A stretch of 60,715 nucleotides of DNA, counting the filler, from Stramenopiles sp. TOSAG23-6 (Eukaryota), in assembly GCA_900128565.1 (NCBI GenBank). It is 15 parts of 15 records of this genome, joined end to end, with 100 filler letters (N's around TTAATTAATTAA, not from the genome) between each part and the next. Parts side by side here need not be neighbours in the genome. Positions count along the whole stretch, not along the records: positions 8,134 to 12,094 come from LT637310.1; 14 more parts are not named here. The stretch is one strand, 5' to 3'. Shown in pieces: positions 1-30,118 of this stretch (position 1 is its first letter; each line of letters begins with the position of its first letter). Below the pieces are notes generated by a model. It was not told the DNA's origin and did no database searches. It worked only from the letters and a program-made list of their open reading frames with translations. The translations under genes and the position numbers were made by a program.

Positions 1-3000
1 AATAGGCTTTACTTNAGAGTATATATATCGTGNAAGTGCNCGTATTGTACTATGCTCATATACAAGTGTTGCAGACATTTTCATTCCTGTTAAAGATCTT
101 AGCTTATTACGCAACTCAACTGAACCCAGAGAACCAAGACCCATGCTATCTAATGGAGAGTCGGGATCAATAGAAGTTGTAGATTCAGTTATATCATCAA
201 AAATAGATACTATATTCTTGACCAATTCAATTTCAGCATCATTTTCACTCATATTCAATAAGGAAGATATAAATTTATTGTTTTGTGCCTTACCTTTATT
301 GTTATCTTTTTTCGTACTTGATGATTCGATTTCTGTAACAAGATCTAAGTGCAAACGTAAATGTGTATTTGTTTTCTCGTAAAGGTTACTATGTAGCTCA
401 TGAAATTGAAAGTTTGACGCCGCAACTACACTTGGCGATAATTTCCCGGCTGACATAATATTCCAGAGTAGCTTTAGCCCTTCATCATTNGTCAATCCTC
501 TAAAACCTGTTCCATCAAAGTCGATATTCGATGCCATTCCAATATCTGCCCAAGGTCCCCACTGTATNCTTGTAGCACACATGCCNCCAAGTCGTAAACG
601 TGATGCAATATTATCCAGTTGAGCATTTGCTGCAGCGTAATTACTTTGTCCAATATTACCAAATAAAGCTGATGTTGAAGAAAAGAGAATAAAGAAACAC
701 GGCTTTAAATCAAGATCTGTGAAAACTTTTTCAAGGTTTTCAGCACCTTCTATCTTTGGCTTCCATACTTTGTAAAATCTATCAGATGTTTGATTCTCTA
801 TTTTACCATCATCAAGCACTCCAGCACAATGTAATACACCAGCAATATTCCCATACTGTTTAGTGATTCGTGCAAATGTGTGTTGCAATTTGCTATAATT
901 ACATATGTCACACACCACAATTTCAACTTTATCCCCATATGTATCACGAATTTCATTCCAAATATTTGTTATCTGAGGTTTTCCACTTCTTGAGAGTAAA
1001 ATTATATGAGATGCACCATGCATAAGTAACATTTTTGTAGTTGCTAAACCCAATGCACCAGTGCCACCAGTTATAATAACTGTATCCTCAGTCAATGATT
1101 TTTGAAATATTATTTCAAATGGTGTACTAAGTTGTACTACAATTTTACCAATTTGCTTAGCATTTCGCATATAGTCAAATGCCGTATGAATACTTTTCTT
1201 TGAGAAACATGTGGTTTTCAGTGGATGTAATTTGTTCAACTCAAAATTTTCATTTATTATCGAAAGTATCTCATTGCCGAATTCTGGGCGTTTTGAAAGA
1301 CGATCATCCAATGCTAATATGTTGTATGCTACATCGGGTCTTTCAATTTTCATTTTCTCCGAGCTCCATATATTTCGTTTCCCAATCTCTACAAAGCGAC
1401 CTCCTTTTTTCAAAACACTCAATGATGCAGATACAAAACCTTCACTGGTAAGACTATTTAGAATAACGTCTACCCCTTTTCCATTGGTTACTTTCATCAC
1501 ATCATTTGCAAATGATAAATCACGAGAATTAAATACAAAACTAGCTCCTTCAGATTTTACAAAAGTCCTCTTGTTTTTACTCGCAGTGCCAATAACGACA
1601 GCACCAAGTGATAGAGCTATTTGCATTGCTGCAAGACCTGTTCCACCCGATGCGGCGTGTATTAGAATATATTCTCCTTTCTTTAGTTTGGATAATTCAT
1701 GCAAAGCTACATATGCTGTTCCGAAACAAGTCGGGATTCCAGCTGCAGCTTCCCATGAGATGGAGTTTGGTATTTTTGCAAGTGATCTTGGATCTGCGAT
1801 ACAATGCGTTCTAAAGCTTCCAGGAATCCAGCCATACACATTATCACCTGGGCATAATGATGTTACATTAGTACCAGTGGCTACAACAACTCCAGATGCA
1901 TCACTTCCTACCATAATAGTTCCATCATTGTCTCTCTCGACGTCTCCAGGATACATACCAAGTGTCATCAGCACATCCCTAAAGTTCAATCCAACAGCAT
2001 GAATGCGTACAACGACATCATTAGGCTTCAAATTATGAAAAACAAACGAAGTTTTTGATAATTTCAATAAGTCTAATGGCATATCATCTGTGATTGATTC
2101 TAACTTTAAATCTGCTTCTGCAATTTGATCTTCGCCGATTGATTTTAAAGTAGCACATAAGCGTCTTCCATTTTGCAGAACACAGCTGATAGAGGAATTG
2201 TGTATTGCACGCGCAACAAGTTTCCCAGTCAATGTATGATCACTGTTGCTACTGATATCGAGACACGCAATATGAGCCCATGGCATTTCCATATCAGCGC
2301 ATTTCAACAATCCCCATAGACTAGATCCTCGCACATCATGAGAAGTTTTTTGCTCAAGTGATGATACTTCATTGACATCTTGAGTAAGTACAAATAGATC
2401 CGGTACCTTATTTCCAGAGGAATGTAAATTTTGAATACATTGTAGAATATCTAGAAGATATATAGTATCTTCAAATGATTGTGGATTTTGTGTAAGTGTT
2501 TTGCTATATATTACGGTATCGTATCCACGTAATAATTGCAAAGTATCTGTATTCGTTTTGTCATTGTCCATCATATCCGGGAAATCTTCGGTGTATTTTA
2601 CAGTACCTTTATGAGAAGTTATGACATTAACTTCATTTTCAAATGATTCGAATAGACAGTGATATCCAGATGATTGGATATCATCGCAAGNGTCGTTTTT
2701 TCTTGAACCGATAACGAGAACTTTTGTGATATTNTTTTCAGANTNAGAAACCGTTGANGGNATTNCNTCTTCTACCCANTCAACTTTCAANAGATTTNTN
2801 TNCATNTCATAAGTANTATCATCNTCANTGTTTNCANTNGNCAAACCTTTCAAAAGNTGCNTACTTACTGGTGCAGTTGAAAATGTTTCTAAATTCACAA
2901 TAGCCTTNCCNGATGAATCCCGTAATACCATCGAAGATATGCCGTTTGTAGATGGTACCATTTGACAAATCCATTGATCCGTATNATTATTNGNTANTTT

Positions 3001-3971
3001 ACCCAANANAGTCATTTTCTTGATATATCGAGGTACGTAGACTTCTATATTGTCGTGATCTTTGACTATATCTGATAAACTACGAATAATACTTGCATGT
3101 ANACANGCATCNAGTAATCCAGGATGTATNACATCATCNATTATGTCNCTTTGNATNGAATNTTTNTTTGACGACTGACCAAGTAATATTATTTGCTCAT
3201 TTGATTCTGATTTTGTCATAATTTCTTCCATCCATTGAAATGAAGGACCATATTGGAANCCTGCGATTTCAATANTTTTATACATATCAAGTTTATCACT
3301 AGATGATCTGACAAACCCTTCCTCTATGCAATTATCAATGCTTCTTTTAGGTATATTGGTATCATTCTTTTCTATTGAAATAATATATTGACATGAAAAA
3401 TGATCCGTCCATTCTATATTTTTCATGTCATCATTACTAACAATATGAATATATCCAAATTGTACAGTTGAATCCNCTTCGGNAAATGAAGGTGTTACAA
3501 TGATATTAATTTCNGTAGATCNACCAGATATATTAGTTTCTGGNATAACAAGAGCTTCTTTAAATTCAATGTCTTCAAGTTCACATACTGAATTGTTACC
3601 ATAGAGATTCTGCAATATTCCAAAGGCCGTGGATATATAATACATTCCAGGACAAACAGATATATCAAAAATACAGTGATCCGAAAATAACTTTCTCAAA
3701 TATTCGTCTACAGTTATTTTAAATATAACTTTTCCTGTGCTTAGTGGAATATTCAAANGAGTTCCAATTAATGGATGCTCATTTCNATGGACTACATTGG
3801 TANTNANTTCNTTCTTTTCATACCAATACNTTTGNCCGCTCAATACAGTAGTAGGTAAACGAACNCGCTTGGCTCCTTCGATTAGTTGATCCCATTNCAA
3901 AGNTACACCACTCACATGAAGCATTGCNGCTGTTTTACANATATTCTTCCAATCNTTTCCATCTNTCTTCA
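1..3971 (-). CDS. Type I polyketide/fatty-acid synthase fragment (post-AT linker, DH, ER, KR, ACP), intronless, open at both contig ends
   Basis: Manual minus-strand translation: post-AT 'LHVSGV..W..LPTT', DH 'HPLIG...SDHCIFDISVCPG', ER 'VRIHAVGLNFRDVLMTLGMYPG', KR 'VIITGGTGALGL...YAAANAQLD', ACP 'DSPLDSMGLGSLGSVELRNKL'. Absent from the ORF track, probably because it is open at both ends. Confidence 0.9.
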
Positions 3972-4180: not shown

Positions 4181-6211
4181 TGATACTTTCATTTGTAGTC
4201 GTAACATGTAAAGCATGAGATTCATTCTCAAGTATTTTATCGGGCCTACTTTGACACAATTCCTTCCATGTAATCATACCATCATCATTAATATCATACG
4301 AGTCAAATAAAACACGCATCTCATCTTGAGAAGGAATTGGTCGTACACCCATGTGTTTTGGAAAAATATTTCAATTTTTTTTTTCAATTTGTTAGGTACA
4401 AAATTTCGTACGAAAAAAAAATTGGAATTCGAAAAAAAAAAATAAAACATACATCATAGCTATACCTCGACTAAATTCATTAAACACAAGTTTATTATTA
4501 CGATTTTTATCAGCTGCAAAAAATAATTGACTATCCGTGACACAACGCCGGCGAAGTTGCTTTTGTATTTTAATAAGTTCTGGTGTTGCAAAATTGTTTG
4601 TACTTGAAGAGAATTTTGACTTTTTTTTTGTTTTTTTTTTTATACTTTTTTCCTTTTGGTGTACGGAAAAATGAAATTTTTTATTGAATTCATTTTCATG
4701 ATTACTTTCGTCATTTTTCATTACTTTTTGATTAGAGTTATTCTTTGTTTCATCTATAATTTCTTTATCATTTTTGATAGTTTGCTTATTAGATTCATCT
4801 ATATATTCTCTGGATTCAGAAAACAAAGGATATTTGGTCATATTGATTAGAGCATCATTATTTTGTTGAGTAAAGGATGGATAGCTTCTTATAAGAGATG
4901 GATTCACTCCAAATTCTTGATCTCCATCATCATATATTATATCATATACATTGTTACCATGGACATCAGCAATGAGCCCGAGATACCATTCATGTTTTGT
5001 GATTTTTTTTAAAGTAAAAAAAATCATTAGGTACAAAATTTCGTATAAAAAAACTAAATTTGAAATGAATGATGAAAACGTACATGACCACCGCCATATC
5101 TTGCTTCTATTCGTGAACCTACAGCAAAGTGTTTACAATCAATTATGACATCATTTTGCATAATTACTTTTTCTATTTTCTCTATTTTGCCACTACTTTT
5201 ATTTTTAGACCACCAAGTATTGTAAAAAATATTTCAAAAATTTGATTTTTTTTTTAGGTATGAAATTTTGTAGCAAAAAAAAAAAAAATTCGAAATTAAA
5301 GTGGACAACGTACAAAATGCATCCTCTTTGTCAAATCCAATATTACTTTTACTTTCATGCTTTCTGCGGGATGCTGGACTTGTAGGTTTTGCCGTACGAA
5401 AACGTTCAATCAAAGTCGCTATTGTATTTCCTTTTCGCATGGTTTCATGTTTTATAGATTTCGTGTTTTTATTTTCTTTTTGAGACATTTTTATTCTTGC
5501 TGACCGAGCCAATGCTGCTGTACCTGGTCTGACAGCAATACTATTCTGTCTATTAACTGGACGATATGTCTGATTCTTCTTATTATTTTGAAATTGTTTT
5601 GCTGAAGCTCTTCCTGGAACAAGATACATTGACTCAATTTGTTTTTGAAGAGGGAGTGAAATCCAATCAGCTCCAGTTACCTCAGTTTGATTTGAAGCAT
5701 ATTGTGCTCTTGGTACAAATGTACTTTCATAGCTTGGTTTAGTTTTTTTAACGTGTTGTATATGATCCTGTTTTGTATTTGTTTCACCTGGAAAAGACAC
5801 AGGAAAATGCTTTTTTTTCGTATTACACTTTGTACGTAAAGAATGTTGAATTTGATTTTGTTTGACAAAAGTATTTTGAAGTGTACTATCACCATGTATT
5901 TTAGATTCAATGTTTTGAGTAATTTCTTCTACATTTTCCGTATTACTATCAGTATCACTATTGATGTCAGTAGAGTATCCTCGCTTTATTCCTCCCGAAA
6001 AAGTTTGTGTAAGACCATCCACTCGAAAAAAACCACCACTAGGATTTGTTGGACTTCGAGGAGGAGCAAGTACTCTAGCCCAAACTGGAGTTCTAGACTG
6101 TGCACGAGAACCTCGCGCAAAGCTTCTCTGGCGAGCAATAGTCGTTGGTATATCTCGTTTTAGTATATTCTGACTTGGTGGTTCTTGTGACGGAAATTTT
6201 ACAACGTGCAT
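4071..6211 (-). CDS. Multi-exon protein with Tudor-like domain and EF-hands, 3' truncated
   Basis: Removing introns 5215-5313, 4992-5083, 4351-4452 joins 'ARYGGGHEWYLGLIADVHGNNVYDIIYDDGDQE', 'ADKNRNNKLVFNEF...GIAMMGVRP' and 'YDINDDGMITWKEL'. Confidence 0.7.
5215..5313 (-). mobile_element. Introner-like intron, GT...TT, preceded by exon TT
   Basis: TT|GTACGTTG...ACAATAC-TT|; splicing gives DAFWWSK in frame. Confidence 0.7.
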
Positions 6212-7943: not shown

Positions 7944-8219
7944 GTATGTTTTATTTTTTTTCAAATTCGAAGTTTTGTTTTCGTACGAAATTTTGTACCT
8001 AACGATTTTTTTTTTGAAATATTTTTCCAAAATNNNNNNNNNNNNNNNNNNNNNNNNNNNNNNNNNNNNNNNNNNNNTTAATTAATTAANNNNNNNNNNN
8101 NNNNNNNNNNNNNNNNNNNNNNNNNNNNNNNNNAAAATATTTCAAAATAAAATCGTTAGGTACAAAATTTCGTACGAAAAATAAATTCGATTTTTTTGTT
8201 AAAAAAAAATAAAACATAC

Positions 8220-9128
8220 ATATCCATCAGGTCCAAATCCAACTGAAATGTTTGTTTCTGGACGCTCATCATCAGGAGTACCTAATCTTGCAACATCGGA
8301 TTTCAAATTATTGTTATCATTTAAATTTAACCATTCTTCGTTCATTTGATTCATGTAGCGCTGTACATGGCCATTTCTTCTTTCTAAAACAGTCTTTTTG
8401 TCTATTATTTCATTATCACCAATATTCCCAGTAGCATTTTCGTCTTCACTGCTACTACTCAAACTATTGACATTTATACGAATACGCATGCTTCGATCAC
8501 GTCTAGAGTCTATTCCCACTGAAATACCATTTTTTTGTAGTCCGGTCCATGTAGATCTATCTTCTGATACAGATTCTCTCTCTAAAGAGCGGGTTTTCTG
8601 CATTACTTGTCTGTGACGAGTATTATTAACTATTTGTGTTTTGTGAAGTAATTTCGTCTCTTCAGAAAAAGCTTCTTTTAGATCATTTTCTCTATTTATT
8701 TTGTCCAATACACGTAACTGTTTTGCCTTCCTCTCTTTTAGCTGACGTGCAAGCTCACTTTCACGGAAAGCACGGATAGATTCGATGAAAATATCGTAAT
8801 CGATTCTTCCAGGGTTAGAAGGATCTTCTAAGACTTCACATATATCCTGACGTTTTTTTCTATTTATACCAAGTTTAAGCCCTATAATGCCCAAAGCAAA
8901 ATCATTTGTTGGCAAACGTCCAAGTCCACGTTCATCATTGGCCTGAAACTTATCCCACATCATTGATAAGTCTGACGCCCCGGACTTTCCCATTAGAGTT
9001 TCTTGGACAGATTCAGCACAAGAAGAAAAGATTCTTACAACTGACTGGATCTGTCTCAGCACCATCCGATCATACTCTGATGTTACATCGTCCAACCCCA
9101 TGGTTTCACCCATAGCTGCATCAACCAT
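8220..9128 (-). CDS. Hypothetical EF-hand-like/coiled-coil protein, exon 1
   Basis: 309 aa ORF with 'DPSNPGRIDYDIF'; runs into intron donor at 8219. Confidence 0.6.
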
Positions 9129-9324: not shown

Positions 9325-11116
9325 ATGAGTCATCTTGTTACCCCTGATGAGCAAGACTTTGGAATCTATTTGCAGCTTGTGGAAGAAACTGTTACCTTAC
9401 AGGCTCATGCTTTAGGTATTGATGGTAGCATATCACCTTCACGATCTCAAGTCAGTCCCACGGGTGAAAGCTTAACAAGACGCTCTATGAGTAATAGTGT
9501 ATCAAAAAAGAAGGCAAAAACACAAAAAAATGGTCGACGAGGTTCTAGTAGTAGCCGCAGTCCGAAAAAGGGAGGCCGTAAGAATGGTGTTCTTCGTCTT
9601 TCACATACTGAAAAGATGGTTCAGAGTAAGTATAAAGTATTTTTTGAAGTGTTGCGTTTAGAAAAAAATGCAGAACTTCGTCGCCAGCGTAACATAGCAA
9701 AGTGCGATCCAAATCACGTTAAATCAATGGTTCGTAAAATGGAGAAAGCTCGCGCTATAGCGAGAAAAGAAGTTCAAAAATGTTTACTACAATTAGGAGG
9801 TCAGGGTCAAACCACAACGAACACTGAGAAGCAGCAAATGCGTAATCAAATGTTGGCAACAATGCCCGATTACACAAAGCATGACTTATTGAACGATTGT
9901 ATGAATCAAGAGCACCCAATACTTAAAGTGAGTTATTCTGCCTTATCGCGTAGCTATACCCAAATATGGAAATGTCTCAATGACTGGTTATACAGCAATA
10001 TCAAAGAGGGTCGAGGCGTATTTATGTATGTTTTATTTTTTTTTTAACAAAAAAATCGAATTTATTTTTTATACGAAATTTTGTACCTAACAAATTTAAG
10101 TTTTTTTTTTTTGAAATATTTTCCCAAAATACATACCAATGTTTGCTACTATAGGTTGGTATTGGCCACGCAAACAATCACCAGCAATGAGTCTAACAAA
10201 TAAAAGTAGTACACATAAAATAGATTCAAAAACTGGAAATGATACGAAAAGTAACAAGGAAACTATATTACTTTCCGAGCCCTTGTTTTTCCTCAGTGAG
10301 AGATTTGCATCGAGATTAGAAATGAAGGAGCCAGTGCAACCTTCTGGTAGTTTTTGTGAAGATATTTTAACGATGGCACCTTCGACACTTAAAAGCTATT
10401 GTCCAGATACTCTCTCACCAGATCAAGTGTATGCAGGTGCTCTTGATATTTTTACATGTATGACAAAAGTAATGCTCATTGGTCGTAGAATTGTTCTAGA
10501 TTTTAGTGTTGGTACTCTCAAAGCTAAAATAGGATCTAGAAAGAAAAACGTAATATTCGATTTTAAGGATGATATCAAGGACATGGCCCCAAAGCGTACC
10601 ATTCTATCGAGAAATGAACGTCGCAATCGTATACAGAAAAGTCTTTTAAGTAACCAAAATTTAACATACAGTTCAAAGCCTAAAAGTCCGGCAACGCTGA
10701 AGCAATTAGAAGCAAATGATGCGTTTCATCGCAAAGATTTTGACTCTTGTGTGAAAGGATACAAGGAAACTCTCAGAATGTTAAAGAAAAGAGGCCGTGA
10801 AAGATCTCAATTTATTGATGCGACTGAAAAGAAAATCGAAGGAAATAACAAATCAACTGATTTCAAATTGAGCGATACCGACATATCTGCTCAAAAAAGT
10901 TCAAAGATTGCTACAAGTAATCATAAAGTCAAAGTAATACATCGAGATGGTGATGGGTCACAAGAGATGGATGAGCTTGCAAAGGCAACAATGGGTCCTT
11001 TAAATCCTGAAAATTCACATGAAATTACAGTTCCCGGTCTCGGGACTTTAGAATTCGAACCAGGAGAACACAAAATGTTGATGGATCAGCTAGAAGACGA
11101 AATGAAAGCAATATAA
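9325..11116 (+). CDS. Two-exon protein, possibly CCDC81-like (HU-like domains)
   Basis: Intron 10026-10134 removal gives 'IWKCLNDWLYSNIKEGRGVFIPMFATIGW'; later 'PLFFLSERF' and 'LDFSVGTL'. Confidence 0.5.
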
Positions 11117-11287: not shown

Positions 11288-12032
11288 CTACAATTTATGT
11301 GTACCTTTTTCTGCCGAGACATGAATCGCTTTACTTCCTTCATTAACTTCACTGGCGCATGTATTTTGGAAAAATATTTCAAAAAATCTAAAAAAAATTG
11401 TTAGGTACAATATTTCGTACGAAAAATAAATTCGAAATTTAAAAAAAAAAATATACATCTTCTGGAATATTATGTCCACAATCTCTAAATACACTCATTT
11501 CGAATACACCTTGCATCTGGGCAACTGTTAGTGGAGTATCTAATCGATCTACACCCGCAATGACTAATAAGATAGGAATACGATATTTGTTTTTTACTAT
11601 TTGTCTATTAGTTGCAGTATCGGAAATTTTCTCTGAAATTGGAATTCCAGTCGCTACAGATATGAATAAGCTTGATAAATTATCATACCATGGATTATGA
11701 AAAAATATTTCAAAAAAAATCGTTAGGTACAAAATTTCGTACGAAAAATAAATAAATAAATCCGAAATTGAAATTGAAATGAAAACGTGCATCCATGCCA
11801 GTATTTTTTTGTGCTTAACAGTGGTGTTTTCCATTCAAATCTAATCATTTTATCTTTATCCGAGGTTGGAGGTGGCACAAAAGGTGGAGGTGGCATTAAA
11901 ATATTCGATGGTATCGGAGTTGTCGTTGAGATTGATGCCTTTCTACTATCATTTATCTCAACCTGACGCAGTTGAGCGGGAACAGATACTCTTGCACTAG
12001 CAACATTCTTTACAAATCCATTCGATAAACTC
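11288..12032 (-). CDS. PPME1: Protein phosphatase methylesterase 1, C-terminal exons
   Basis: Spliced: 'SARVSVPAQL...KYWHGWYDNLSSLF...LVIAGVDRLDTPLTVAQMQGVF...CGHNIPEDAPVKL'; introns 11690-11790 (GC donor) and 11359-11456. Confidence 0.9.
11690..11790 (-). mobile_element. Introner-like intron, GC...AT
   Basis: AT|GCACGTTTT...CATAATCC-AT|; restores PPME1 'YWHGWY'. Confidence 0.8.
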
Positions 12033-12194
12033 ATGCATTGTAAAAAAAATTAAATTCGAAATTTGTTAGGTACAAAATTTCGTACGAAAAAAAANNNNNN
12101 NNNNNNNNNNNNNNNNNNNNNNNNNNNNNNNNNNNNNNTTAATTAATTAANNNNNNNNNNNNNNNNNNNNNNNNNNNNNNNNNNNNNNNNNNNN

Positions 12195-13283: not shown

Positions 13284-15388
13284 TTGATTTTGTCACTTGA
13301 GAAGTCGCGTGGTAACTCAAGTATGGGTCTTTTGGCGGCTTTGGGGACGTTTGGTCTATGTCTTCTATATGTTCTTCTATGGCAAATTTTCCTTTTGACA
13401 ATAGTATTATGTACTCTCAACTTTGCATCTCGTCTCATTGTGTACTTACGACAGTATAATACTAAGTATTATCCCAACGAAAGTTCAACTGACAGTTGGA
13501 ATCTTACAAAGTTCGTGAGCGCTTTTGAAGGAAAGCTTATTAGATTCCTTTGGTTGTTAGCTAGCTTTGTCCCAATGAACCTATTGTTCTTTTTATACCC
13601 TCAAGAGTATCTACAACTTGGCGGTACATCAAAGAAAAATGCGAAATATTTTTTAGTGGAACATCCGAAAGAGACTAAACAGCAGAGTATTGTAGATCAC
13701 GGTGTACGTAAAAGAGTTTCCTCGAAAACATCCATATCTGCTCTAGTTGACGATAATTTAAGCATTGGTAAAAAATCCTCATATGCAAATGCTGATATTC
13801 ATGTAACGAACGTTTCAAAGTTACGCCGTGTGAGAGAATTTCGAAGCCCAAGTTTGTATTCTACTGGTTCTACTGGTCAACTACCAATAGTATCTGCTGA
13901 TACTGAAAATGTACGGCATGATATGAGATATCCCTCAACAAAGAAGAATATGTTTTTTCATAGTTTGGGTGAGGAGCATCGTTGTTGTGATAGAAGGGAT
14001 TGTTGCACTCAAACATGTTTTAAGTCAAAATGTTGCTGCAGTTGGGCAAAGTTTATACTAATTCTTGTATTATCAACTTTTGTTTTAAGTTTTGTATACT
14101 GTGTATACTGTGTGAAATATCCAAGAGGAGTTTCACCGTTCCCTCCCTCATTAGTTCAGTCTATCTCTGGTGAAAATGAAGTATGTCAACAGAGTATACA
14201 TAATAATAATAATAAGTATAGACAACATTCAAAGATACAATTAGATCGAGAGTTAAATCATACATCTTCTGAAGAAAATCCTTTTACAAGAGAGGCTTTT
14301 CGAATACATGTCATTATTTCATCGATTCATCGAATTTCAGATGGACCGTTGAATGCTCTAGCTAAGTCTCTCAAAAATGCAGGAAAAATTAGAAGATTGG
14401 AAGAAACTAGGGCGAAAGCTTTCAATTTGTATCCATTTCCATTACTGATGAATGCAGATATAAAATTTAGTGTGTATAATGCTGAACAAAGTAAAGCTAA
14501 GAGTCATGGACTGAAATTAGAAACTTTTTGTAAAGAAATATTAGAAGATTGCCAAAATTATAAAACACCTGTACATTTGAGTAACGAAGCAATTGAAAGT
14601 AATAATAGTCGTGATAGTTTTGTTGAAACTTCAAGAAAAGCACAACATGTGAAAATTAAATCGAAAACGGATTTGCAAAGAATGTGGAAACAAAAACAAA
14701 AATTTGATACTGCCTATGCGCTGAGGGATACATTGCGACGCAATAAGAAAACAACACATATTTTGTGGCATGAGGATGATACAATTGTTGCAGATCATTT
14801 ATGGAAACGTCTTGGTCCAAGTATTTGCTCATCTAGAATTGTTTGTTTAAGAGCTACGGTGAGTGGTGGTCAGTGTGGTAATGTTGCATATTTGATGCCT
14901 CGAGCATTTGTGTTGCATTTCATTAAAATGCTTGATGTTCATAAGAAATCAGATGTATGTTTTATTTTTTTTCAATTTCGATTTTTTTTCGTACTCAATT
15001 TTGTACCTAACGGGTTTTTTTTTTGAAATATTTTTCCAAAATACATATGACTAGTGATTTTATTCTAATTGCTGCCGCTAGAGAATTTTATAATAATGAG
15101 TTATTGTTATGGGATCCAATAGTTCGCCACGGTGCAGCAAAGAAGTTTTCTTCTCGACCTCATAATACCATCAAACAAATACGTGATGCTAAAAAAGGTG
15201 AGAAACAAGGTTGGTTTGGAGCTCCAGTAGACGGAACAGAAGGTGTTGATGAAACTTTGGGTAATGCATTAGATCGTGAAAAGTATGTTTTAATGAACAC
15301 TGTGAGAAGTGGGTGGTTTTGGTATACTTTCTGGATGCCTGACTTTATAAGGTCAGTGTTTTTCAGAACCCAAATTATCATTTACTAG
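13284..15388 (+). CDS. Membrane-anchored putative glycosyltransferase (GT-A-like), two exons
   Basis: Several TM segments; luminal 'FDTAYALR...HILWHEDD...GNVAYLMPR...DFIL...IVRH'; intron 14955-15046. Start uncertain. Confidence 0.5.
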
Positions 15389-16154: not shown

Positions 16155-16307
16155 NNNNNNNNNNNNNNNNNNNNNNNNNNNNNNNNNNNNNNNNNNNNTT
16201 AATTAATTAANNNNNNNNNNNNNNNNNNNNNNNNNNNNNNNNNNNNNNNNNNNNTACGAAATTTTGTACCTAACGATTTTTTTTTCAAATATTTTTCCAA
16301 AATACAT

Positions 16308-16893
16308 ACGGCTTGCGGAAGCACATGCGCGTTTTATGTGCCGCCACGAAGTTACTGTAGATGATGCTGTAGTGGCTGTACTGCTTGTAGAATCATCTAA
16401 AAACACTCATGATAGTTTAAAAAACTCAACATTACACAATGTATATTTTATTTTTTTTCAATTTCGAATTTATTTTTCGTACGACATTTTGTACCTAACG
16501 AATTTTAGTTTTTTTTTTTTGAAATATTTTTCCAAAATACCTGACTTCCCGGATGATCTTTTAGCAGACACGCAATTTCGTACTACACGAAATATAATAC
16601 TGGATAGATTGAAAGTTCAGTATTCAAAGGATAATAATAGTGTATGTTTTATATGAATTTCTAATTTAAGGTTTTTTTTTTCACACGAAATTTCGTACTT
16701 AACGATTTTTTTTGAAATATTTTTCACAATACGTTCTTCACATGTAAATCAGGAAAATTATTTCCCCCAAAATTACCAGTCTTATCCTCATGATAGTAAT
16801 AGCGATAGTAGATATAGTAGACATCAAGGTAGCATGTTATCTCAAAGTAATAGTGATACTCAACGAAGTTGGGCTTCTTTTCTCGATGATTAA
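16308..16893 (+). CDS. MCM9: MCM9-like helicase, C-terminal exons
   Basis: 'IRLAEAHARFMCRHEVTVDDAVVAVLLVESS...LH.DFP'; introns 16441-16542 and 16642-16734; stop at 16891. Confidence 0.8.
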
Positions 16894-17110: not shown

Positions 17111-19987
17111 CTATGCATGCATATTCGCTAACCGGACATCATCTTTCAATTTCTTAATCAATGCTTCGTATTTGTCCATTGCAGATTCTTCATGCTTCTG
17201 TAAACGTTGCTCCAGGATTTGAATGCGAAACATCATATCCATACAAAACTTCTCATATTCTTCATCTGCTCCTTGGTCTTGATCACGACTTCTTTGGAAC
17301 GCGGCTTGTCGTTTGGCTAATTTAGCATTTTCTTTATCCAATCGGTCCTGTATTATATTTGCCCTTTCAACTAATCTTTCTTTTAAAGCTCGAAGACAAA
17401 GATCGTTTACTTTGAGCGCTTCTTCCTTACTTAGCTCAAGCTTTCCTTCTTCCAAATATGGCGATAAATAGTCAAGGTTTTCGTCCTTGTCTTGTCCAGA
17501 TTCTACGGATGTATTTCCTTTACTAGATTGAGTTTTATCCAAAACTTTGTCAAAAATTGACTTTACAAGTTCAACATTGGCATTTTCTCTTCCACGTACT
17601 GACAATATCTCTCCTAATTCTCGCTTCGATTCACGAATGGCCTGGTAACATTCTTTTTCAGCTTTTAACATAGCTTGAAACTCAGGACTCAATGTCGTTT
17701 CGTTTTCTCCATCACCACCAAATGCTTCTGCACNNNNNGCATTCTCTTTATTGAATGTTCGACTTTTTTGAGTAATCATACCTTTCGCATTAAAGAAAGT
17801 TTCATTAATTTTAGCATCACCTCTTGGCTGTAAATAAAAAATACGCTCATTAATTTGATTCTCAGGTGACACAGAGTTGTCCATTTTTTTGTATTTTTGA
17901 CTCATTTTATTTATAATTAGTTCACTACTGCCTCCACCCCCAGGTAATGTAAAAGTCTGAGGCGACTGTCCTCCATTTTCATCTTTTTTTACCTCAACAA
18001 ATCTTGATAATAATGTATTGTGAAAACTATTTTAAATTCGAAATTCGTTAGGTACAAAATTTTCAATGAAAAAAAATAAATTCGAAATTCCTTGATAATA
18101 ATGTACATCTATCTTCTCGCCAACCAAATATTTCAGTTATTTCTTTGCCAAAAATCTCTTCTATATAATCAAGTCCATCAAAGCGAGCGGCAGAAAAAAA
18201 TTTCAGTTTTGCCCACTGGCCCATTTTTGTTTCAAGTTCACGTAGTTTATTTGGTCTTCCGGGTGAAAATTTTTCATGTTTTCTTGCTTCGAGCGGAAAT
18301 GAAGTTCTTGAATCAAGTTTATCCGAACGATGTTTGAATAACTCGGTTATTTTTATTGGGACAGTCCTGGCAGAATCTTCAAATTCTGTAATGCGGGATA
18401 CAAGCCCTTTAGGGTGTAAATATTCAGCAAAAAGCTCCACTTTAGATTTTCTGTATAGTACTGTGTGGTCACGTACTGTTTTGCCATACTTTTTTGCATA
18501 TGCAGTTTGAGTAATGACAGGTTTGTTACTCCAGGACACTGGACAAGCTAGAAAATTATCTGGTTCTTTCGGTGTATTCGTACCTTCATCTCCACTTCCT
18601 TCATCCATGATTTCCATATCATTTTCATCGCCTTTGACACTTGATGCGTTGGAATTTGATTCAACTTCCAACAAAGCATTTATTTGTGCTTTGATTTCTT
18701 TTGTAGTAAACACGAATTCCCAATGTTGAGAATTGGCAAAATCCCATTCAACATTGAGTACATCAGAAGTATATTTTATTTCATCTGATTTATCCTGATT
18801 ACTTTTCTTTTTTCCCTTCTTCTTTTGTGACTCAGCTTTATTTAAATCAGTCGCTGATGTTGAATCTGGAGTTTGCATATTCACAAAATAATTCGAATCA
18901 TTCCACACAGATTCTATACCATAATATGGACAATTCGTACCACTTACGGGATAGAAACGACCTGTAGTAGGTTCAATAAAAGNNNNNNNNNNNNNNNNNN
19001 NNNNNNNNNNNNNNTTTCGTTTACCTGGACAGAGTACATGTACTGTAAAAAAATATTACAATTTTTTTTTATTAGGTACAAAATTTCAAACGAAAAAAAA
19101 AAATAAATTCGAAAATAAAAAAAATATTGAAAACATACCACCCAACAATGGACACGTCGGTAATCCTTTGAAAGTTTGTCATTTTCAGATGATAGTGTGT
19201 CAGAGTCGTCTTCCATTAAAAGTTCATTAGCTTTTTTCAAAGCTAGTTCGGCTGCAGCTGCTTTACGATCCTGAGCTAACAAAAATTTTGATTTAAAATT
19301 GAAACGAACAGGTAACTTATATGGAGAATTCTCCCCCACAGTGCCTTTAGTTTGGTCATTAGATGATTCTGCTGAAGATTCTCCTTCAGATGTAGTATCT
19401 AAATCAGGTCTCATCATAGACGATTGATTCAATTTGCAAATATCTTCACTGGCATAGCCATACACACAATATGCATCATAACCGGCACCAAGTAGAAACG
19501 AACACAACAAATTCGAAAATTCAAAAGAATCAGCGATTTGCCAATTAACCACTCTACTTGGCGAAGCAATACAATTTGGTGGCTCATTGGCATCTTCTAG
19601 GGGCTCATATTCTAAGAAGCCAGACACAAAGGTAGCGAGTTCCTGTGCATAGTATAACTTCTCCCAACAAAGTAATGTTGGTCGTAATGTAGTACAAACA
19701 AATTTTGGAATGTCACACTCATTAACCGGGTTAAGAAAGAGTTTTCGTCGTAACGGGTAGAGTTCTTTGAAACGTGCTTGAAATTTTTTCACGTGTGCAA
19801 TACAGTTCTTCTCTTTTGCATTGTTAATTCCGTATTTTTTTGGTAGAGCTGTTGCATCCCATTGGCTTCGACCTTTCAACCTAGCAAGTCGCTCTGTTTT
19901 GGTATTGAACACCCCAGTCCCTAGACAATTTTTCTTATCAATCATCACTTCGGGTAATTCCTCATTTAGAACTACTTCAGATGACAT
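17111..19987 (-). CDS. DRC7: Dynein regulatory complex subunit 7 (CCDC135)
   Basis: 'PVNECDIPKFVCTTLRPT', 'LLCSFLLGAGYDAYCVYGYA', 'RVHCWV', 'WNDSNYFVNMQ', 'LVERANIIQDRL', 'MFRIQILEQRL'; introns 19038-19138, 18013-18106. Confidence 0.93.
19038..19138 (-). mobile_element. Introner-like intron GT...AT in DRC7
   Basis: GTG|GTATGT...TACAGTAC-AT|GTA gives HCWVVLCPGKR; the nearby CAG would frameshift. Confidence 0.85.
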
Positions 19988-20400
19988 ATTAGAAGTATCA
20001 CTGGCCTCCTAAACTAAAGGAAGCAATAGATTAGGTGCTCACAAGGCTACTAGATACTGTAGACTACACTCCAAAACAAGTTCCAAAATGTAACGTTTTT
20101 TCATACGCGGTCAAAAAACGAAAAGATTTGCCAAATAAGTCAATAAGATCTGTCATCCTCCAGAAGATATAATTAAAGCTAATCATCCATGACATTGTCT
20201 GCAGAGAACAACATNNNNNNNNNNNNNNNNNNNNNNNNNNNNNNNNNNNNNNNNNNNNTTAATTAATTAANNNNNNNNNNNNNNNNNNNNNNNNNNNNNN
20301 NNNNNNNNNNNNNNAAAAAAAATCTAAAAAAATTGTTAGGTACAAAATTTCGTACGAAAAAAAAAACTAAATTCAATTTCCAAAAAAAAATAAAACATAC

Positions 20401-23311
20401 ATGAACTTTTCATAAATGCAATTTCAAAATAGTTTGAGGACGGATTTTTCGACGCGACAGCTTTGGCTAAGATGGATTGCCGAATTTCAGCATTATTTTT
20501 GGATCTTATATTTACACGAAATATATGTCTATCAGAATAAGCCCAAATAATATCACCATTACATGTAGTACTCGAATGGAATGGTACGTTGCCATATTGA
20601 CTAGAATTCATATAATTATTAGATTTGACCATACATAAGTTACCTTTGCTAATATCACCATTAATATTTTTTTTTGTACCTTTTTTTGTAGCCTTATTTT
20701 GGTCATACACATCAATCCGCCCGGAGCGTAGACATACAAAATATTTCTGAGCTGGGATAAATGATAATACTACACTATCGACTATATTATTTTGTTTCGT
20801 CGAAATTGAATCTTTAGTAACTTTCGTATCAACTTTCGTATCAACTTTCATACCTAACGAATTTTGAAGTACAGCGTCCCCATGGAAAAACATTTTAGAA
20901 TCTACCATAACAACATCTCCAGGGTTTTTCATACCTAATGATAACTTTCCATAGTAAATACCTACGCCTGTCAATACTGCAAATGAATCAATGTTTTTCT
21001 CTGTAGAAGAAAATACTCGAAGTTCAGGAGTGAACCCGGTACCCCACGATTCCATTGGTGTATGAATTTCAGTAAATTCTTCAGAAGACTTTTTTATTTG
21101 ATGTACAGAGCCACTGTCTGCTGTTTTGTAAAGAAAATTAAAATTTGAAATTGGTCAAAAAAAAAGTTGGCTTACATCTAAAAAAAATCTTTTTTGTTTA
21201 GGTACAAAATTTTGTATGAAAAAAAAATAAATTTGAAATTCATGATGAAAACGTACAAGAATAAAACCGAAACATTTGGCTGAAATCGGGCCCACCAATT
21301 GTGTCAGAATGTAAACCAATAAATTGATAAATTCGATTTGACTCTGGGACGAGGGATTTCCCTTTATTTTGTATTGCATTCTTTTCATCTCGATGCGATA
21401 CCATTGCAAGTACTAAATATCGTATATCACTAGGGTTAGGGTTTGTGTTATTCATTTGTGAAAATCGTGTTTCATTTGAATTTGAAAAAGACATATAATA
21501 CAAACCCATTACTAAACCACCATCTATAATTGAATGAACTTTGTCAAGTCTTTGGGCTCCCGTCAAAGAAAAGATATATTGTGAAAAGATTTTTTTTTAT
21601 ACAAAAGAAATTGTTAAGTACGGAATTTTCATAGTAAAAAAAAATTGTGAAAAGATTTTTTTTTATACAAAAGAAATTGGTCAGTACGGAATTTTCATAG
21701 TAAAAAAAATGAAATTTATTATGGAAACGTACACAGCTTCATAAATATCTCCACTACGCATGCCCAAAAGTACCGAATCTGAAATCTGTACATTAGAATT
21801 TATTCTAAAACTATTTTTTTTCTTACATTGTTCCGACCCCCATGAAATGTGAAAAAATATTTTTTTTTTGTAATTGTTTTGTTAGGTACAAAATTTGGTA
21901 CAAAATTTTCATAGTAAAAAAAAATTGAAAACATACATGCGACACTTTCTACTATTTCAGACTGTATTTTTCTTAATTCTTCAAATTCATTGCGATCTCT
22001 ATGCAAATGATACGTTGTACCACTTGACATAGCAATGAGTACATGAATTCCTGTTGGATCGATAAATACTTTATTGACCACATGCTTAGGAGGACTAGGG
22101 TTAGGGTTTTCANNNNNNNNNNNNNNNNNNNNNNNNNNNNNNNNNNNNNNNNNNNNNNNNNNNNNNNNNNNNNNNNNNNNNNNNNNNNNNNNNNNNNNNN
22201 NNNNNNNNNNNNNNNNNNNNNNNNNNNNNNNNNNNNNNNNNNNNNNNNNNNNNNNNNNNNNNNNNNNNNNNNNNNNNNNTTTTTTTTTTTTTTTTTTTTT
22301 TTTTTTTTGGGTCAAAATTTTCTCAAAAAATTAAATTAATTAAATTCGAAATTCATAATAAAAACGCACTTGAGTGATGGGATGACGAACCCCACGACGG
22401 AGAAGAGATTCAAACAATTTTGATGTATTCACTCGCTGTACAGAAAATAAAGCATTCGAGTAGACTTTACTATTGGCTTCAATATGGAGATATTTTGTAG
22501 AGGTATGAGATAAATTGTAAACAAATTTTGTATTCAATTTCTTCTTTTGTGTCTTTTTTTTCCTTTGGAGTGAAAATGTTTTATTCGTATTCACAGAATT
22601 TCTTGTGTCTGCTAGGGCATCCTCATCCTCACCCATAGAGAGTCGTCTACGTCTTTCCTCATTAGTGTTTGTTATATAATTAATTGTGCCAAGAACGCTT
22701 TGACGTTGTGGATAGTCATCTGGTTGTGTCTGAAAAGGGTTAGTAGTTTTTTTTTGAGAGACAATACCTCTATCATTTTTGAAAGTCTTTACTGTAGTGA
22801 ACGGAGTCATCTCATCTGAAACGCTTTGCGATTTTGACAATTCATGATTTTTAGGTCCGGCATATTGAGGATGCATACTTTGTTTAAACGGATTTGAAAC
22901 ATTTGATCGCAATGTATTATGGTTACTAAAGGGATTCAATTCCCCAGAAACCGGTGCATGATTACGTATATCATTTGATTGTAATGCATTGGGATTGCTA
23001 AACGGATTTGTAGCCCTGGTAGTTGGCACATGATTAGGTACACTAGGAAGTGACATGTCCACTGTATTAGTATTAGTATTACTAAGAAAAGGATTACGTC
23101 TATCCATCTTATTACCTCCCTCAACAGTATTCGTTTGATTTGACATAACAGTGTTAATGGTGTGACTAGGTACACTTGGTAAGGACATATCCAATGCAGG
23201 TTTGAAGCCACGCGAAAAGGGATTAGTTGCTTTAGCTACATTTGCATTATTATTTCCCGGAATATTCTTCTTCGCAAAAGGGTTTCCTCGATTTGGTCCT
23301 TCGGATGACAT
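20401..23311 (-). CDS. VPS18: Vacuolar protein sorting 18 (Pep3)-like, N-terminal exons
   Basis: 'VNKVFIDPTGIHVLIAM...IVESVAWG', 'VLLGMRSGDIYEA', 'IYQFIG', 'LTGVGIYYG', 'IWAYSDRHIFRV'; introns 21842-21936, 21574-21732, 21121-21256, donors at 22369 and 20400. Confidence 0.8.
21121..21256 (-). mobile_element. Same-family intron with canonical GT...AG ends
   Basis: TT|GTACGT...TTACAAAAC-AG|; AG occupies the position where most copies have AT; frame FYSSDSGSV. Confidence 0.75.
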
Positions 23312-24274: not shown

Positions 24275-24426
24275 NNNNNNNNNNNNNNNNNNNNNNNNNN
24301 NNNNNNNNNNNNNNNNNNTTAATTAATTAANNNNNNNNNNNNNNNNNNNNNNNNNNNNNNNNNNNNNNNNNNNNTACGAAATTTTGTACCTAACAAATTT
24401 CGAATTTAATTTTTTTTACAATACAT

Positions 24427-24950
24427 GTGCAAGCAGAAGAAGCTAGTATTTTAGCACAAAATCAAAGGAGAGAAAGCAATAATGTTTTACATTACCAGTC
24501 TTCTTTTTGTGATTGTAACCCCAACCCTAACAACAGTGACGATAAAATGTTTTATTTAAATTTGTTGTCGAGTTGTAGTGATAATTCCGAATGTTCACCT
24601 GAAGATTCGATGTATGTTTTTTTTTTTTTTAAATTTGAAATTGAATTTATTTTTTCGTACGAAATTTTGTACCTAACAAATTTTAGTTTTTTTTTTAATA
24701 TTTTTCCACAGTATTTACTCTACAGAAGAAATAATGATGTATTTGAAAACGGTGATTCAAATAGTATAGATTTTAATATTTCTAATTTTCAAAAGAATTT
24801 CGAAAATTCTAAAAATAATACAACAAAACCATTTAAAGAAATTTCAGGATTCTGCCCTAGGTGTAATCGGATGATATTAAATCCATGTTCAGTTGCTAAT
24901 AATGATATTGAAAGTTTAGAAAAGGCTCTTTCAGCTGATGAGGCTATGTA
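24427..24950 (+). CDS. Internal/terminal exons of a hypothetical protein
   Basis: Bounded by family introns (ends 24426; 24612-24716; starts about 24948); 'FCPRCNR'. Confidence 0.45.
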
Positions 24951-27162: not shown

Positions 27163-28333
27163 ATGGGAAACGCTGACTCGTCTGCGATCGGGACTTGGTC
27201 TAGTTTTGCTACTGCACCAGATCCTCGAAAGATACATAGACTCACTCCAACTATTTTGAGAAGTGTAAATAACACTCTTTTGAGAATATCTTCCAAAATT
27301 AGAAATGAATATAAGTATATAAGTCTTGAGGAGTTGATTAATATTTTGGAGAGTCAATCATCTAAAGCCTTTAATTCTGATTCAAATATCCCTGAAATAT
27401 CGAAGCAGTTATTATATTTATCTGATGTCGACAAAACTGGAAATGTAACATTTCCATCACTTTGTGCAGCAGTTCAAGCAGCACGTTACGTAGCAGATGA
27501 AATAGAACAGATTGCAAAGAATAGCAATGATGTATGTTTTATTTTTTTTCAAATTCGTTTTTTTTTTTCGTACGAAGTTTTATACCTAACGATTTTTTTT
27601 TTGAAATATTTTTCCAAAATACATACTTCAGACTTTGAGACTCGAGAAAGACGACTTTGTATGTTAGAAGTTCAAAAAGAACAGGAACAAGCACGAACAC
27701 AATTACGATCTGAGCATATTGAGGCAGTAGCAAATAAAAAATCTCAGCTAAATCATTTGTTTAATGAAGTATGTTCTCGATATAATGATAAATTTGAGAG
27801 TAAAAAAAAGACTCATGCGGATGTGATACAACGTTTGGCGGAAGAGCATCGTAATGTTATGGAGGAAGCACAGAGGGAAGAGCAAAAGGAAAGAGAGGCT
27901 GAAATTTCTGAATTGGATAAAAATCTTGAAGCTCATAAATCTATTCTACTTGAAGATCATGTAGGTTTTCAATTTTTTTTAAAATTTTTAAAATTTTTTA
28001 AATTTTTGTACGAAATTTTGTACCTAACAATTTTTTTAGATTTTTTTTGAAATATTTTCTCAAAATACATAGAAAAGCATTGGAAAAATTGTATGACCAG
28101 ATGCAAAATGAAGAAGATGAAAAAACAATACAGCTGCAAAACGAACAAGAAAAAAGATTAGAAACAATTCGTAGAAAATTAGATCAAGAACATGCTGATT
28201 CAATCGAGGATATACAACAACAGCATGTATGTTTTTTTTTTTTTAAATTCGATTTTTTTTTCGTACGAAATTTTGTACCTAACATTTTTTTTTTTTTTTT
28301 TTTTAAATATTTTTCCAAAATACATGGACTTTT
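27163..28333 (+). CDS. EF-hand-like plus coiled-coil protein, 3' truncated
   Basis: 'MGNADSS', 'SDVDKTGNVTFPSL'; introns 27532-27624, 27961-28070, 28227-28325 keep frame. Confidence 0.65.
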
Positions 28334-28524
28334 NNNNNNNNNNNNNNNNNNNNNNNNNNNNNNNNNNNNNNNNNNNNTTAATTAATTAANNNNNNNNNNN
28401 NNNNNNNNNNNNNNNNNNNNNNNNNNNNNNNNNAAAAATTTAATTTTTTTTTTAATTTTTGGAAAAAAAAAAAAAAAAAAAAAAAAAAATTAAATTCTAC
28501 TAATGAAAAACACGAAAAACATAC

Positions 28525-28953
28525 AATATCACCACCAGGAAATGTATAGGCTCCAGTGATGTTAAAAAGTGATCGTTGTTGTATAGCCATAAGCCTAGCT
28601 TTACGCCCACCTGTACCATCTGGATTTCTTGGTATATGGGGTTGAATGAAAATTGCCCCAACTTGTTCTCGAACCTCCCGGTCATTAAAAAATGGAGATC
28701 CTGTCATCTTTTCCCCCCACTGCTTCAACCTCATCTCATCAAGCTTATGCTCTCCACATGGTTTCGCCCATGTTAACCACGGTGCTGATTCTCCTGATGT
28801 ACCATCGTCTAAGCTTTCAATACGGTCTGAAAACTTTGGTGCGTTAAGAAGTCGAAGTCGTTTAGCTTCATCGAGTCTTGCTTTGACAGCTTTGTTCCTT
28901 CTCTGAGTCACAGTCAAAGCTTGTTCCTCATCAGAACTATCAGTATCACTCAT
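28525..28953 (-). CDS. Hypothetical protein, exon 1
   Basis: ATG-initiated coding-like ORF ending at donor 28524 (TT|GTATGT). Confidence 0.55.
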
Positions 28954-29313
28954 TGTATATACTACAAATATAGTTTTCCTTATTTTACCATTGCGTATAT
29001 AATAACTTTGATTGGAGAAGATTATATGTCAATCAAACTATTACTACTACCTGTAGTATATAACAATAAACATATCAATCCAATCTAAATCGAGTGACTG
29101 ACAAACCACGACAAACAACAACTGTTTGTAACTGTCAAGTTGTCAAAGTAAATTTCCAAACTAGTAGTCAAAAAGTCCTTTTGAACGATAGGGGTGTGAA
29201 CTGTAAAGGTAATACTAGCTAGATCTATCCGGGGAGTAGAACGTGTGGCTAACCGATAGCTACTTATTGAACATATCTTGGACAGTGTATGAACATCTCG
29301 AACGTTGAAAAAT

Positions 29314-30081: not shown

Positions 30082-30118
<37 letters not shown>

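Follow-up and report, generated by a model that had tools for sequence, protein, structure and literature searches.

Bursts of intron gain are currently best explained by introners. The logic by which the Micromonas introner makes an intron was reportedly described in the 2016 primary paper on that organism. As set out in PMC11282704, the element supplies the 5' splice site and the branch, and the 3' boundary lies in the duplicated target. The introners of Micromonas pusilla and Aureococcus anophagefferens are short, non-coding and nearly identical introns that lie in sense orientation in unrelated genes, carry short direct and inverted repeats, and take one splice site from the element and the other from within or beside the duplicated target; in the accounts given by PMC11282704 and PMC7789003, their splice sites are canonical GT/GC-AG. 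In this work, we analysed a repeated intron family in DNA of Stramenopiles sp. TOSAG23-6 (assembly GCA_900128565.1), namely 15 whole contigs of 3.9-4.0 kb, ordered by length and joined by spacers of the form N44-TTAATTAATTAA-N44 (60,715 bases, hereafter the window). A first-pass annotation of this window had likened the family to the introners of Micromonas and Aureococcus, and the comparison holds for the similar introns in sense orientation and stops at the 3' splice site, which is canonical there, whereas the elements of the window end in ...ACAT| with no AG. Their direct repeat is further limited to 2-3 nt (AT/ATG), and they carry a long conserved branch box and 3' box. Relative to known introners, this non-AG boundary, most likely GT...AT, would be new.

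Other described systems share part of these features. Amoebophrya, also a marine protist, has repeated non-canonical introns with direct repeats at their boundaries, inverted repeats and no internal transposase (PMC7789003); these introns have no dominant terminal dinucleotides and hairpin-forming inverted repeats of 8-20 nt, in an organism reportedly without U1 snRNA, whereas the window elements show a strict GTAYGT, one fixed 3' motif and a pairing of 5-6 bp that is thermodynamically undistinctive. In Fritillaria borealis, introns derived from miniature inverted-repeat transposable elements (MITEs) resemble ours by their transposon-born bloom and by 3' ends in AC/AT, which an adapted U2 spliceosome handles there (PMC11282704); this species is, however, an animal, the 5' ends of its introns are mostly AG rather than GT, and many classes of termini stand against the one fixed family seen here. 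Finally, the introns of euglenids and hemistasiid diplonemids have one conventional junction (usually the 5' one), a non-canonical 3' end and repeats that blur the cut (PMC4770533, PMC12621601). Their ends pair stably or extensively, and hemistasiid introns have G-/C-rich inverted repeats according to PMC12621601, whereas the window elements have AU-rich ends, weak pairing, a branch box and a T-tract. Our survey of the literature retrieved no paper with the motifs described below, the only matches being unrelated primers, and, beyond the systems compared here, no introner report with AT-AC or GT-AT ends.

The elements of the window follow a single layout, i.e. (AT)GTAYGTTTT, T-run, TTCGAA, T-run, TTCGTACGAAATTTTGTACCTAAC, T-run, GAAATATTTTTCCAAAATAC(AT), and typically span about 90-110 nt. 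The 24-nt core TTCGTACGAAATTTTGTACCTAAC was matched 45 times with at most three mismatches, against no match in 100 dinucleotide-preserving shuffles. An nhmmer profile built from 23 copies (cut-off E<=0.01) returned 69 matches on 12 of the 15 contigs, with none on contigs 1, 8 and 13. Distinct copies number roughly 60, fewer than the matches because some of the latter are halves of one long or tandem copy, and the density is about one element per kilobase. Similar introns are found in unrelated host genes (MetH, DRC7, DapB-like, Memo, DnaJ, MFS and others). Aligning 22 full-length copies gives the consensus aTGTAtgTTTTattttttttaattT..aatTTtTTTTTcgtacgAAATTTTGTACCTAAC.a.tt..ttttttgAAATATTTTtccAaAaTaCAT, where upper case denotes conservation of at least 90%; within the 5' site, G3, A5 and T8-T11 do not vary among these copies, and the branch box TACCTAAC ends 31-43 nt before the 3' end of the element. 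Their pairwise identity has a median of 0.80 and ranges from 0.62 to 0.92.

Much of what the first-pass annotation had stated about the family is borne out. The copy that it had delimited at 10026-10134 (+) is exactly as described, starting with GTATGTTTT and ending in ...AAAATACAT, and the internal architecture that it had proposed is reproduced by the consensus. It had counted more than 60 copies on 13 of the 15 contigs, which is right as to very many copies and one contig too high, and the profile, count, divergence and orientation that it had suggested measuring are those reported in this work. It had further placed about 17 contig ends inside a copy; a strict test gives 10 of the 30 ends, a smaller number in the same direction. 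By eye, the left end of contig 6 also lies inside a copy and that of contig 15 probably does, the right end of contig 7 stops 9 nt past a copy, and five further contig ends fall in A/T homopolymers or A/T-rich runs. Contig ends lie inside copies because the assembler broke at a high-copy repeat.

We took a complete copy to begin with the G of GTAYGT and to finish with the T of ...ACAT. After excision of this stretch, 19 of 26 copies had a frame of 80 codons that ran through the junction uninterrupted, whereas the same test with the 3' end shifted by +/-1, +/-2 or +/-4 nt left the frame open in 0-3 of the 26. Without excision, the frame was open in three copies, and on the antisense strand in two. 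The lengths of the elements are spread over the three classes modulo 3 (8/8/10), and the intron phases are even (7/7/5). Taking out exactly the element, together with one copy of the flanking AT (often ATG) repeat, restores the host reading frame. In the copy at 10026-10134 (109 nt, flanks AT/AT), for example, excision joins two frames that are each open over at least 40 codons, whereas no AG is met until 20 nt further downstream, where it is out of frame.

The methionine synthase gene (MetH) offers a finer test of the junctions, as two complete copies at 36788-36892 (+, 105 nt) and 37598-37688 (+, 91 nt) split it into three exons that align to positions 865-934, 935-1144 and 1145-1393 of the homologue P0143 (1395 aa), with no residue gained or lost at either junction. 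All six further homologues are colinear with the joined exons over both junctions, i.e. over NNY..xD(L/I)GVM and F(D/E)(D/E)A(Q/T)x(M/L)L. At the last intron of the DapB-like gene (32972-33058, -), excision yields ...FLYRIIQAKH|DRKFWSMLDVLGEGALL followed by a stop. Judged from these reading frames, the elements are intervening sequences that would be removed exactly.

Regarding the 3' end, the copies finish in ...A(A/C)AATAYAT with coding sequence directly after, and not in AG; the first-pass annotation, correct as to the reality of the family, had overlooked these ...ACAT ends. When the first AG at least 10 nt past the branch box was taken as acceptor, only 4 of the 21 copies that could be tested had an open frame, whereas the inferred end gave one in 19; in 14 of these 21 copies, the interval from the branch box to the end contains no AG at all. 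A donor placed 4 nt further in (GTAY|GT) and combined with the first AG gave a working frame in 8-10 of the 21 copies, and the normal donor combined with the first exonic AG did so in 6. AG is scarce inside the copies (18 observed for 55.2 +/- 5.9 expected in shuffles), a deficit that could stem from an AG-free founder and that was not used as evidence.

The exact position of the cut is masked by the repeat that flanks the elements. In 20 of 26 copies, AT stands both immediately before GTAYGT and at the end of the excised stretch, and the exon continues with G in 14 of the 26, which often makes the repeat ATG. Because of this AT/AT repeat, the readings GT...AT, TG...CA and AT...AC yield the same mRNA. 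Two copies with unequal flanks discriminate between them. In dynein regulatory complex subunit 7 (DRC7), the copy at 19038-19138 (-, flanks TG/AT) keeps ...HCWV if cut at |GTATGT and would give ...HCWD if cut 2 nt upstream; both solved DRC7 homologues that reach the site read RVHCWV and RVHSWV, with the V predicted for |GTATGT. In the DapB-like gene, the copy at 33572-33668 (-, flanks GT/AT) keeps ...KADTSG with the same cut and would give ...KADTSD with the shifted one, and the three printed alignments with solved reductases (...KADVSG, ...KADVSG and ...KLDASG) all carry the predicted G. Since both copies favour the canonical position of the 5' cut, the 3' cut would fall two bases after ...TAC. 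We consider it probable that the introns read GT...AT, with GT...GT, GT...AA and GT...CT as rare variants. Several points weigh against this assignment: the direct repeat leaves the cut ambiguous in most copies, and the choice of GT...AT rests on two copies with one conserved residue each. Moreover, the exon downstream of the DapB-like copy matched only designed armadillo repeats among solved structures, leaving the abutment of the two exons unconfirmed, and the exon downstream of the DRC7 copy, whose start is hidden by an N gap, gave no useful alignment to solved structures. To our knowledge, a GT...AT class of spliceosomal introns has no established mechanism.

Orientation bears on how the elements leave the message. 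Relative to the local coding strand, as judged from flanks outside the element, 36 of the 69 matches are sense, 2 antisense and 31 uncallable, and within single contigs the strand of the element flips together with that of the gene. The sense orientation claimed earlier for copies inside coding sequence therefore stands in 36 of the 38 callable cases, and both exceptions are explained: one (20819-20865) is a 15-bit match, probably due to chance, in an exon of the minus-strand Vps18-like gene that encodes a ...MKVDTKVDTKV... repeat, and the other is the final intron, mentioned above, of the DapB-like gene, which lies on the minus strand. An element that has to be read as RNA should show such a bias, unlike a sequence cut from DNA. 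Junctions were further checked over 36549-40501 in three RNA runs and one DNA run. In the independent seawater DNA run X2, contigs bridge the exon-element boundaries 36603|36604, 36787|36788, 37597|37598 and 40120|40121 with at least 31 letters on each side, hence the element-bearing form is the DNA form in nature. The RNA contigs of the three runs (31-210 nt, plus one 1040-nt record that touches an element with 41 nt) include none that bridges a junction; they lie within exons or elements and are too short to cross one. Summed word depth was about 10,000-43,000 in element bins and 7-9 in unique bins for X2, and 55-362 and about 1-7, respectively, for X7; these values are not copy numbers and no inference was drawn from them. 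Because of the sense bias, the strict GTAYGT, the T-runs and the branch-like TACCTAAC at its distance from the end, the evidence points to removal in RNA by the major spliceosome.

The explanation that we favour, with moderate confidence in it as a whole, is that MITE-like non-autonomous introners form most or all introns of an AT-rich marine flagellate. Each element brings a yeast-like 5' site GTAYGTTTT, the branch box TACCTAAC, T-runs and the 3' box GAAATATTTTTCCAAAATAC. The major spliceosome would then cut before GTAYGT and two bases after ...TAC, with the usual AG acceptor left unused. The last two bases of the intron would be the duplicated target dinucleotide, as in introners that borrow a splice site from the target-site duplication, but non-AG. 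A few master copies would have given rise to the family through DNA transposition, and purifying selection since then would keep the three signal boxes while the remainder of each copy drifts. What is seen in the copies is that GTAYGT and the branch box lie within the element and that the last two excised bases are the two bases found before the 5' site, i.e. the splice signals come from the element and from its duplicated target as in introners, but with a co-opted 3' site that is non-AG. A more tentative extension is that, after a flood of the genes by an introner with an AT target duplication, GT...AT has become the default spliceosomal intron of this free-living flagellate, the major spliceosome reading the 3' site from the long box TTTYCAMAATAC plus 2 nt instead of from AG.

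That the copies descend from a mobile element is suggested first by blocks of sequence shared between unrelated places. A 28-nt 5' block, GYAYGTTTTCRTYATGAATKTCRAATTT, is common to copies on four contigs, and so is a 31-nt 3' block, AATTTCGAATYTAWTTTTTTTTACAATRCAT; the variant block TTTTTTCATAATCCAT occurs in two unrelated genes and TTTTTTTAGATTTTTT on three contigs. Such shared blocks measure 16-31 nt, exact shared stretches reach 48 nt, and 6 of 2154 between-contig pairs share at least 40 exact nt. As these variant blocks exceed the demands of any signal, they argue for common descent over mere likeness of splice signals. Additionally, AT is the dinucleotide that adjoins the element in 22 of 26 copies, on the left as on the right, for a background frequency of 0.10, and the left flank equals the right one in 22 of 26 (20 AT/AT, one GT/GT in the copy starting at 16642 and one AA/AA in the copy starting at 47958). 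The ends form a terminal inverted repeat of about 6-10 nt, GTAT...ATAC extended by the self-complementary AT repeat.

The strongest competing view, which we nevertheless regard as unlikely, is that there is no mobile family at all and that the introns are old ones whose likeness is convergent or selected under strict and long splice signals (5' GTAYGTTTT, branch AAATTTTGTACCTAAC and 3' TTTYCAMAATAYAT). It gains from two introns whose interior is unrelated to the family and which are framed by the same three boxes. The first (47148-47463, +, 316 nt) has no family match inside, begins and ends like the family (GTAGGTTTTC ... TTTCAAATTACAT) and leaves an ORF (open reading frame) at 3' shift 0 only; the second (45949-46101, +, 153 nt) consists inside of four tandem units of about 16 nt, CAAATGTATTATTTTT, with family-type ends and a CTAAC box, and its ORF is open at shift 0 and also at -1 and +2. 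As the boxes persist on introns with unrelated interiors, selection explains part of the likeness. Conservation is likewise uneven along the element, at or above 90% in three boxes and below 60% in the spacers of the 22 copies, and a median identity of only 0.80 with a maximum of 0.92 indicates that the copies are not very young. The flanks of the 6 informative copies, which have AT missing on at least one side, co-vary in 2 cases and mismatch in 4, leaving a true target-site duplication unproven, and no empty site was seen; no transposase family (Pfam) was found among 20 long ORFs of the window, although 60 kb is too little to exclude one; and the exact 24-nt core has no match in metagenome contigs or in viral contigs, i.e. 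no copy was found outside the organism's own data. All these points count against a mobile origin. On the other side stand the long variant blocks in unrelated genes, the contig ends (at least 10 of 30) that break inside copies as expected for near-identical repeats, the even phases, and the recurrence of spacer sequences such as TTCGAA and TTCGTACGAA. The homologue P0143, moreover, is encoded as 1395 aa on a 4414-nt contig, with no room for introns at these MetH sites. A relaxed two-box pattern, which recovers 14 copies in the window, also matched two metagenome contigs, but these were rejected as chance matches, one shared unrelated sequence having no other feature of the family.

Weighing both sides, mobile element and strict signals both seem to hold, and we read the family as an old but long-active introner family in which selection would keep the three boxes and let the spacers decay. 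The single repeated intron family in unrelated genes that had been proposed at first pass is therefore supported. Its non-autonomous, transposon-like origin receives support from the shared blocks, the equality of flanks and the inverted repeat, and none from the search for a transposase that had been suggested along with it. The objection raised with that proposal, namely that the likeness is a selected splice signal, applies to part of it, as the two introns with unrelated interiors indicate, and does not account for the shared variant blocks.

A second alternative keeps the removal in RNA and dispenses with the spliceosome, as has been proposed for euglenid nonconventional introns, the pairing of the ends then setting the cuts. 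We judge it quite improbable. The non-AG 3' end and the direct repeats at the junctions would suit it, as would the presence in euglenid intermediate and nonconventional introns of one conventional junction, usually the 5' one (PMC4770533). The short inverted repeat of the ends noted at first pass is indeed present: of six folded copies, four have in their minimum-free-energy fold a terminal AU-rich helix of 5-6 bp between the ends (ATGTAT.../...ATACAT, pairing as AUGUAU/AUACAU), and the inferred cuts would leave a 2-nt 3' overhang. However, the folds are no stabler than those of shuffles (z from -2.46 to +0.04, with five of six above -1 and only one at -2.46), and a helix of just 5-6 AU-rich pairs is broken in some copies whose excision restores the ORF, e.g. 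40121-40211. The strong U1/U6-type GTAYGT, the branch box at a normal distance and the T-runs further argue for the spliceosome, and the invariant G3, A5 and T8-T11 together with these z values set the elements apart from euglenid and diplonemid nonconventional introns. Four of the six folds also contain a small hairpin, GUACGA/UUGUAC (two GTAC motifs), directly 5' of the branch box. As a separate observation, the interior of the element is made of palindromes, namely AAATTCGAATTT, the perfect 10-mer TTCGTACGAA and GAAATATTTC-like sequences (e.g. at 54095-54196, -), which may be relics of transposase-binding sites or aids to the presentation of the branch site.

AT-AC is the one non-GT-AG pair known to function in both spliceosomes. 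Introns of the U12 type have the 5' consensus /RTATCCTT and the branch consensus TCCTTAAC near the 3' end. A third alternative, to which we give very little credence, would accordingly move both cuts 2 nt upstream and make the elements AT-AC introns, either of the U12 type or handled by a major spliceosome that accepts AT-AC. Through the AT/AT repeat, AT...AC is as valid as GT...AT in 20 of the 26 copies, and TACCTAAC matches the U12 branch consensus at 6 of 8 positions. Nevertheless, both discriminating junctions favour the cut at |GT, the 5' end ATGTATGT misfits /ATATCCTT, and the branch box, 31-43 nt from the end, lies beyond the short distances of U12-type introns; with such a 5' site, (AT)GTAYGTTTT, and such a branch distance, the elements do not belong to the U12 type. 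None of the U11, U12, U4atac and U6atac genes was found in the window, which is uninformative since Rfam and tRNA scans of the window gave no match and no snRNA gene of any kind. Elsewhere, AT-AC introns are enriched in one family of Demutovirales among marine mirusviruses, with a WCTAAC branch consensus, according to PMC12768974; that a host with introns like those of the window, which standard tools would label AT-AC, could be relevant here is pure speculation.

Finally, cutting of the elements from DNA by a precise-excision transposase, as for the internal eliminated sequences of ciliates (a conversion of introners to such sequences is discussed in the preprint 10.64898/2026.07.09.736142), is scarcely credible. 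Precise excision would indeed remove an element exactly, together with a single copy of a short direct repeat, but the sense bias (36 of 38) is then unexpected, the X2 DNA contigs keep the elements at four boundaries at about the depth of unique sequence, the standard code gives ORFs above 1300 codons, and the boundary repeat is AT rather than TA.

The remaining complete copies of the family were delimited by the same means. Frame tests and profile scores support those at 4351-4452 (-, 62.8 bits) and 54095-54194 (-, 62.7 bits), and a frame test with the profile those at 28227-28325 (+), 8 nt from a contig end, and 33820-33918 (-), whose 5' site is GCACGT. The copy at 11359-11456 (-) was identified by the profile, its ORF test failing at 120-nt flanks, with short exons around it. 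Frame tests delimit the copies at 21842-21936 (-), 27532-27624 (+), 27961-28070 (+, with a 5' GTAGGT), 47690-47793 (+) and 53539-53631 (-), as well as two longer ones at 59589-59734 (+, 146 nt) and 60150-60289 (+, 140 nt, with an expanded T-run). Variant blocks accompany the frame test at 11690-11790 (-), where the 3' end is the variant TTTTTTCATAATCCAT, and the frame tests at 40121-40211 (+), which has the same variant in the BBS1-like gene. A second subfamily (5' GTACGTTTTCATTATGAAT..., 3' ...ACAATGCAT) is represented by 42844-42961 (+; frame test and variant blocks) and 53796-53887 (-; frame tests and variant blocks). Flank analysis was combined with frame tests for 14955-15046 (+), and with a frame test for 16441-16542 (+, flanks AT/CT), 24612-24716 (+, flanks AT/TT, with a less certain 3' end) and the two copies with a co-varying direct repeat, 16642-16734 (+, GT/GT) and 47958-48063 (+, AA/AA). 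Copies cut by a contig end were recognised by the profile and the contig-end test at 7944-8033 (+), 8134-8220 (-), 12034-12094 (-), 16255-16307 (+), 20315-20402 (-), 24375-24426 (+), 36549-36603 (+, the first MetH intron seen), 40415-40501 (+), 40602-40668 (-), 44490-44550 (+) and 52741-52807 (-).

Some copies depart from the simple form. Composite introns with two cores or branch boxes in tandem occur at 58247-58438 (+), 40765-40906 (-) and 21577-21733 (-), as if one copy had inserted into or beside another. In a further DRC7 copy at 18013-18089 (-), a direct repeat of 15 nt, TACATTATTATCAAG, is found at the 5' end and recurs just past the 3' end, where 2-3 nt are usual; a duplication may account for it, or a 5' site that has shifted.

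Concerning the window itself, the GC content of its contigs ranges from 0.22 to 0.44, and the longest ORF under the standard genetic code has 1346 codons. Besides MetH and DRC7, the genes recognised encode Memo, DnaJ, an MFS transporter, a Vps18-like protein, a DapB-like reductase and a PKS/FAS-like ER-KR module, and we read one more as encoding a BBS1-like protein; such genes are those of a flagellated eukaryote. The locus is present in seawater metagenomes and polyA metatranscriptomes, hence the organism is marine. Contigs 1, 8 and 13 (1-3971, 28434-32392 and 48700-52640), which are those with no family match, include two that are single unbroken ORFs of 1341 and 1346 codons, encoding the PKS/FAS-like ER-KR module and a Cys-rich repeat protein; genes of these classes may lack introns, or else the contigs are of other origin. 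The first and last 57 nt or so of contig 4 (12195-16154) are identical (TAAGCCTGCAGACGGGACATCACG...), which suggests a circular or tandem arrangement, or else an artefact of amplification or assembly. Contigs 12 and 15 (44651-48599 and 56781-60715), with a GC content of 0.22-0.26, are far AT-richer than the others and terminate in long homopolymers of A or T, and the proteins that they encode are of low complexity and coiled-coil type; family copies are still present in them.

A public gene model of this organism illustrates the consequences for annotation. In a database search with MetH, the best full-coverage match was 58% identical and matches over part of the query reached 64%; no relative was closer than these 58-64% except P0148 (503 aa, labelled 'eukprot: GSMAST32.ASY1.ANO1.1966.1 assembled CDS'). 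This protein is a model of the same MetH locus, as it is identical to the translation of the window in every aligned block. Its junctions read ...NNYKIH-VL-MVSC... and ...LFND-VQ-MIKE..., which corresponds to a donor that lies 4 nt within the element and an acceptor at the first AG of the exon. Compared with the six homologues, the first junction shows a 2-residue gap, the conserved D-L-G-V being replaced by VL, and the second a change from A to V plus a 1-residue gap. P0148 also lacks four further in-frame blocks that are contiguous in the ORF of the window (36605-38492, +). Two of them are kept in all six homologues, i.e. ILLATVKG and a 20-residue block that includes SLxDFxAP (SLADFVAP... 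in the window), and the other two, of 22 and 9 residues, are lineage-specific insertions; the missing blocks look like spurious mini-introns from homology-guided prediction. Tools limited to canonical sites thus mis-model these introns, as P0148, in which GT-AG is forced, loses conserved residues at both junctions. Two papers that report single-cell genomes from uncultured marine stramenopiles make no mention of the intron type in their main texts, and one of the two describes a refinement of exon-intron boundaries with est2genome and Genewise. According to PMC12130899, a 2025 survey of introners, families with unfamiliar splice sites were kept only with support from transcript alignments. Introner surveys that proceed in this way and depend on annotated introns would miss this family, as they would an unannotated or mis-annotated genome like the present one.

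Any proteome or phylogenomic matrix to which this organism contributes may therefore contain systematic small errors and, if GT...AT is truly its default intron, most intron junctions would be off by a few residues in its public proteome, which was built with canonical-site tools. This would also amount to a genome-wide change of one of the most conserved signals of eukaryotic gene expression, beside fully canonical 5' and branch signals. Known cases have either canonical sites or variable ends, difficult to dissect, as seen in Amoebophrya, Fritillaria, euglenids and diplonemids. The family described here would be a clean intermediate, with textbook 5' and branch sites, a single and fixed 3' end other than AG, and natural replicates by the thousand, through which the rewiring of a 3' splice site, and whether the target duplication dictates the new acceptor, could be tested.

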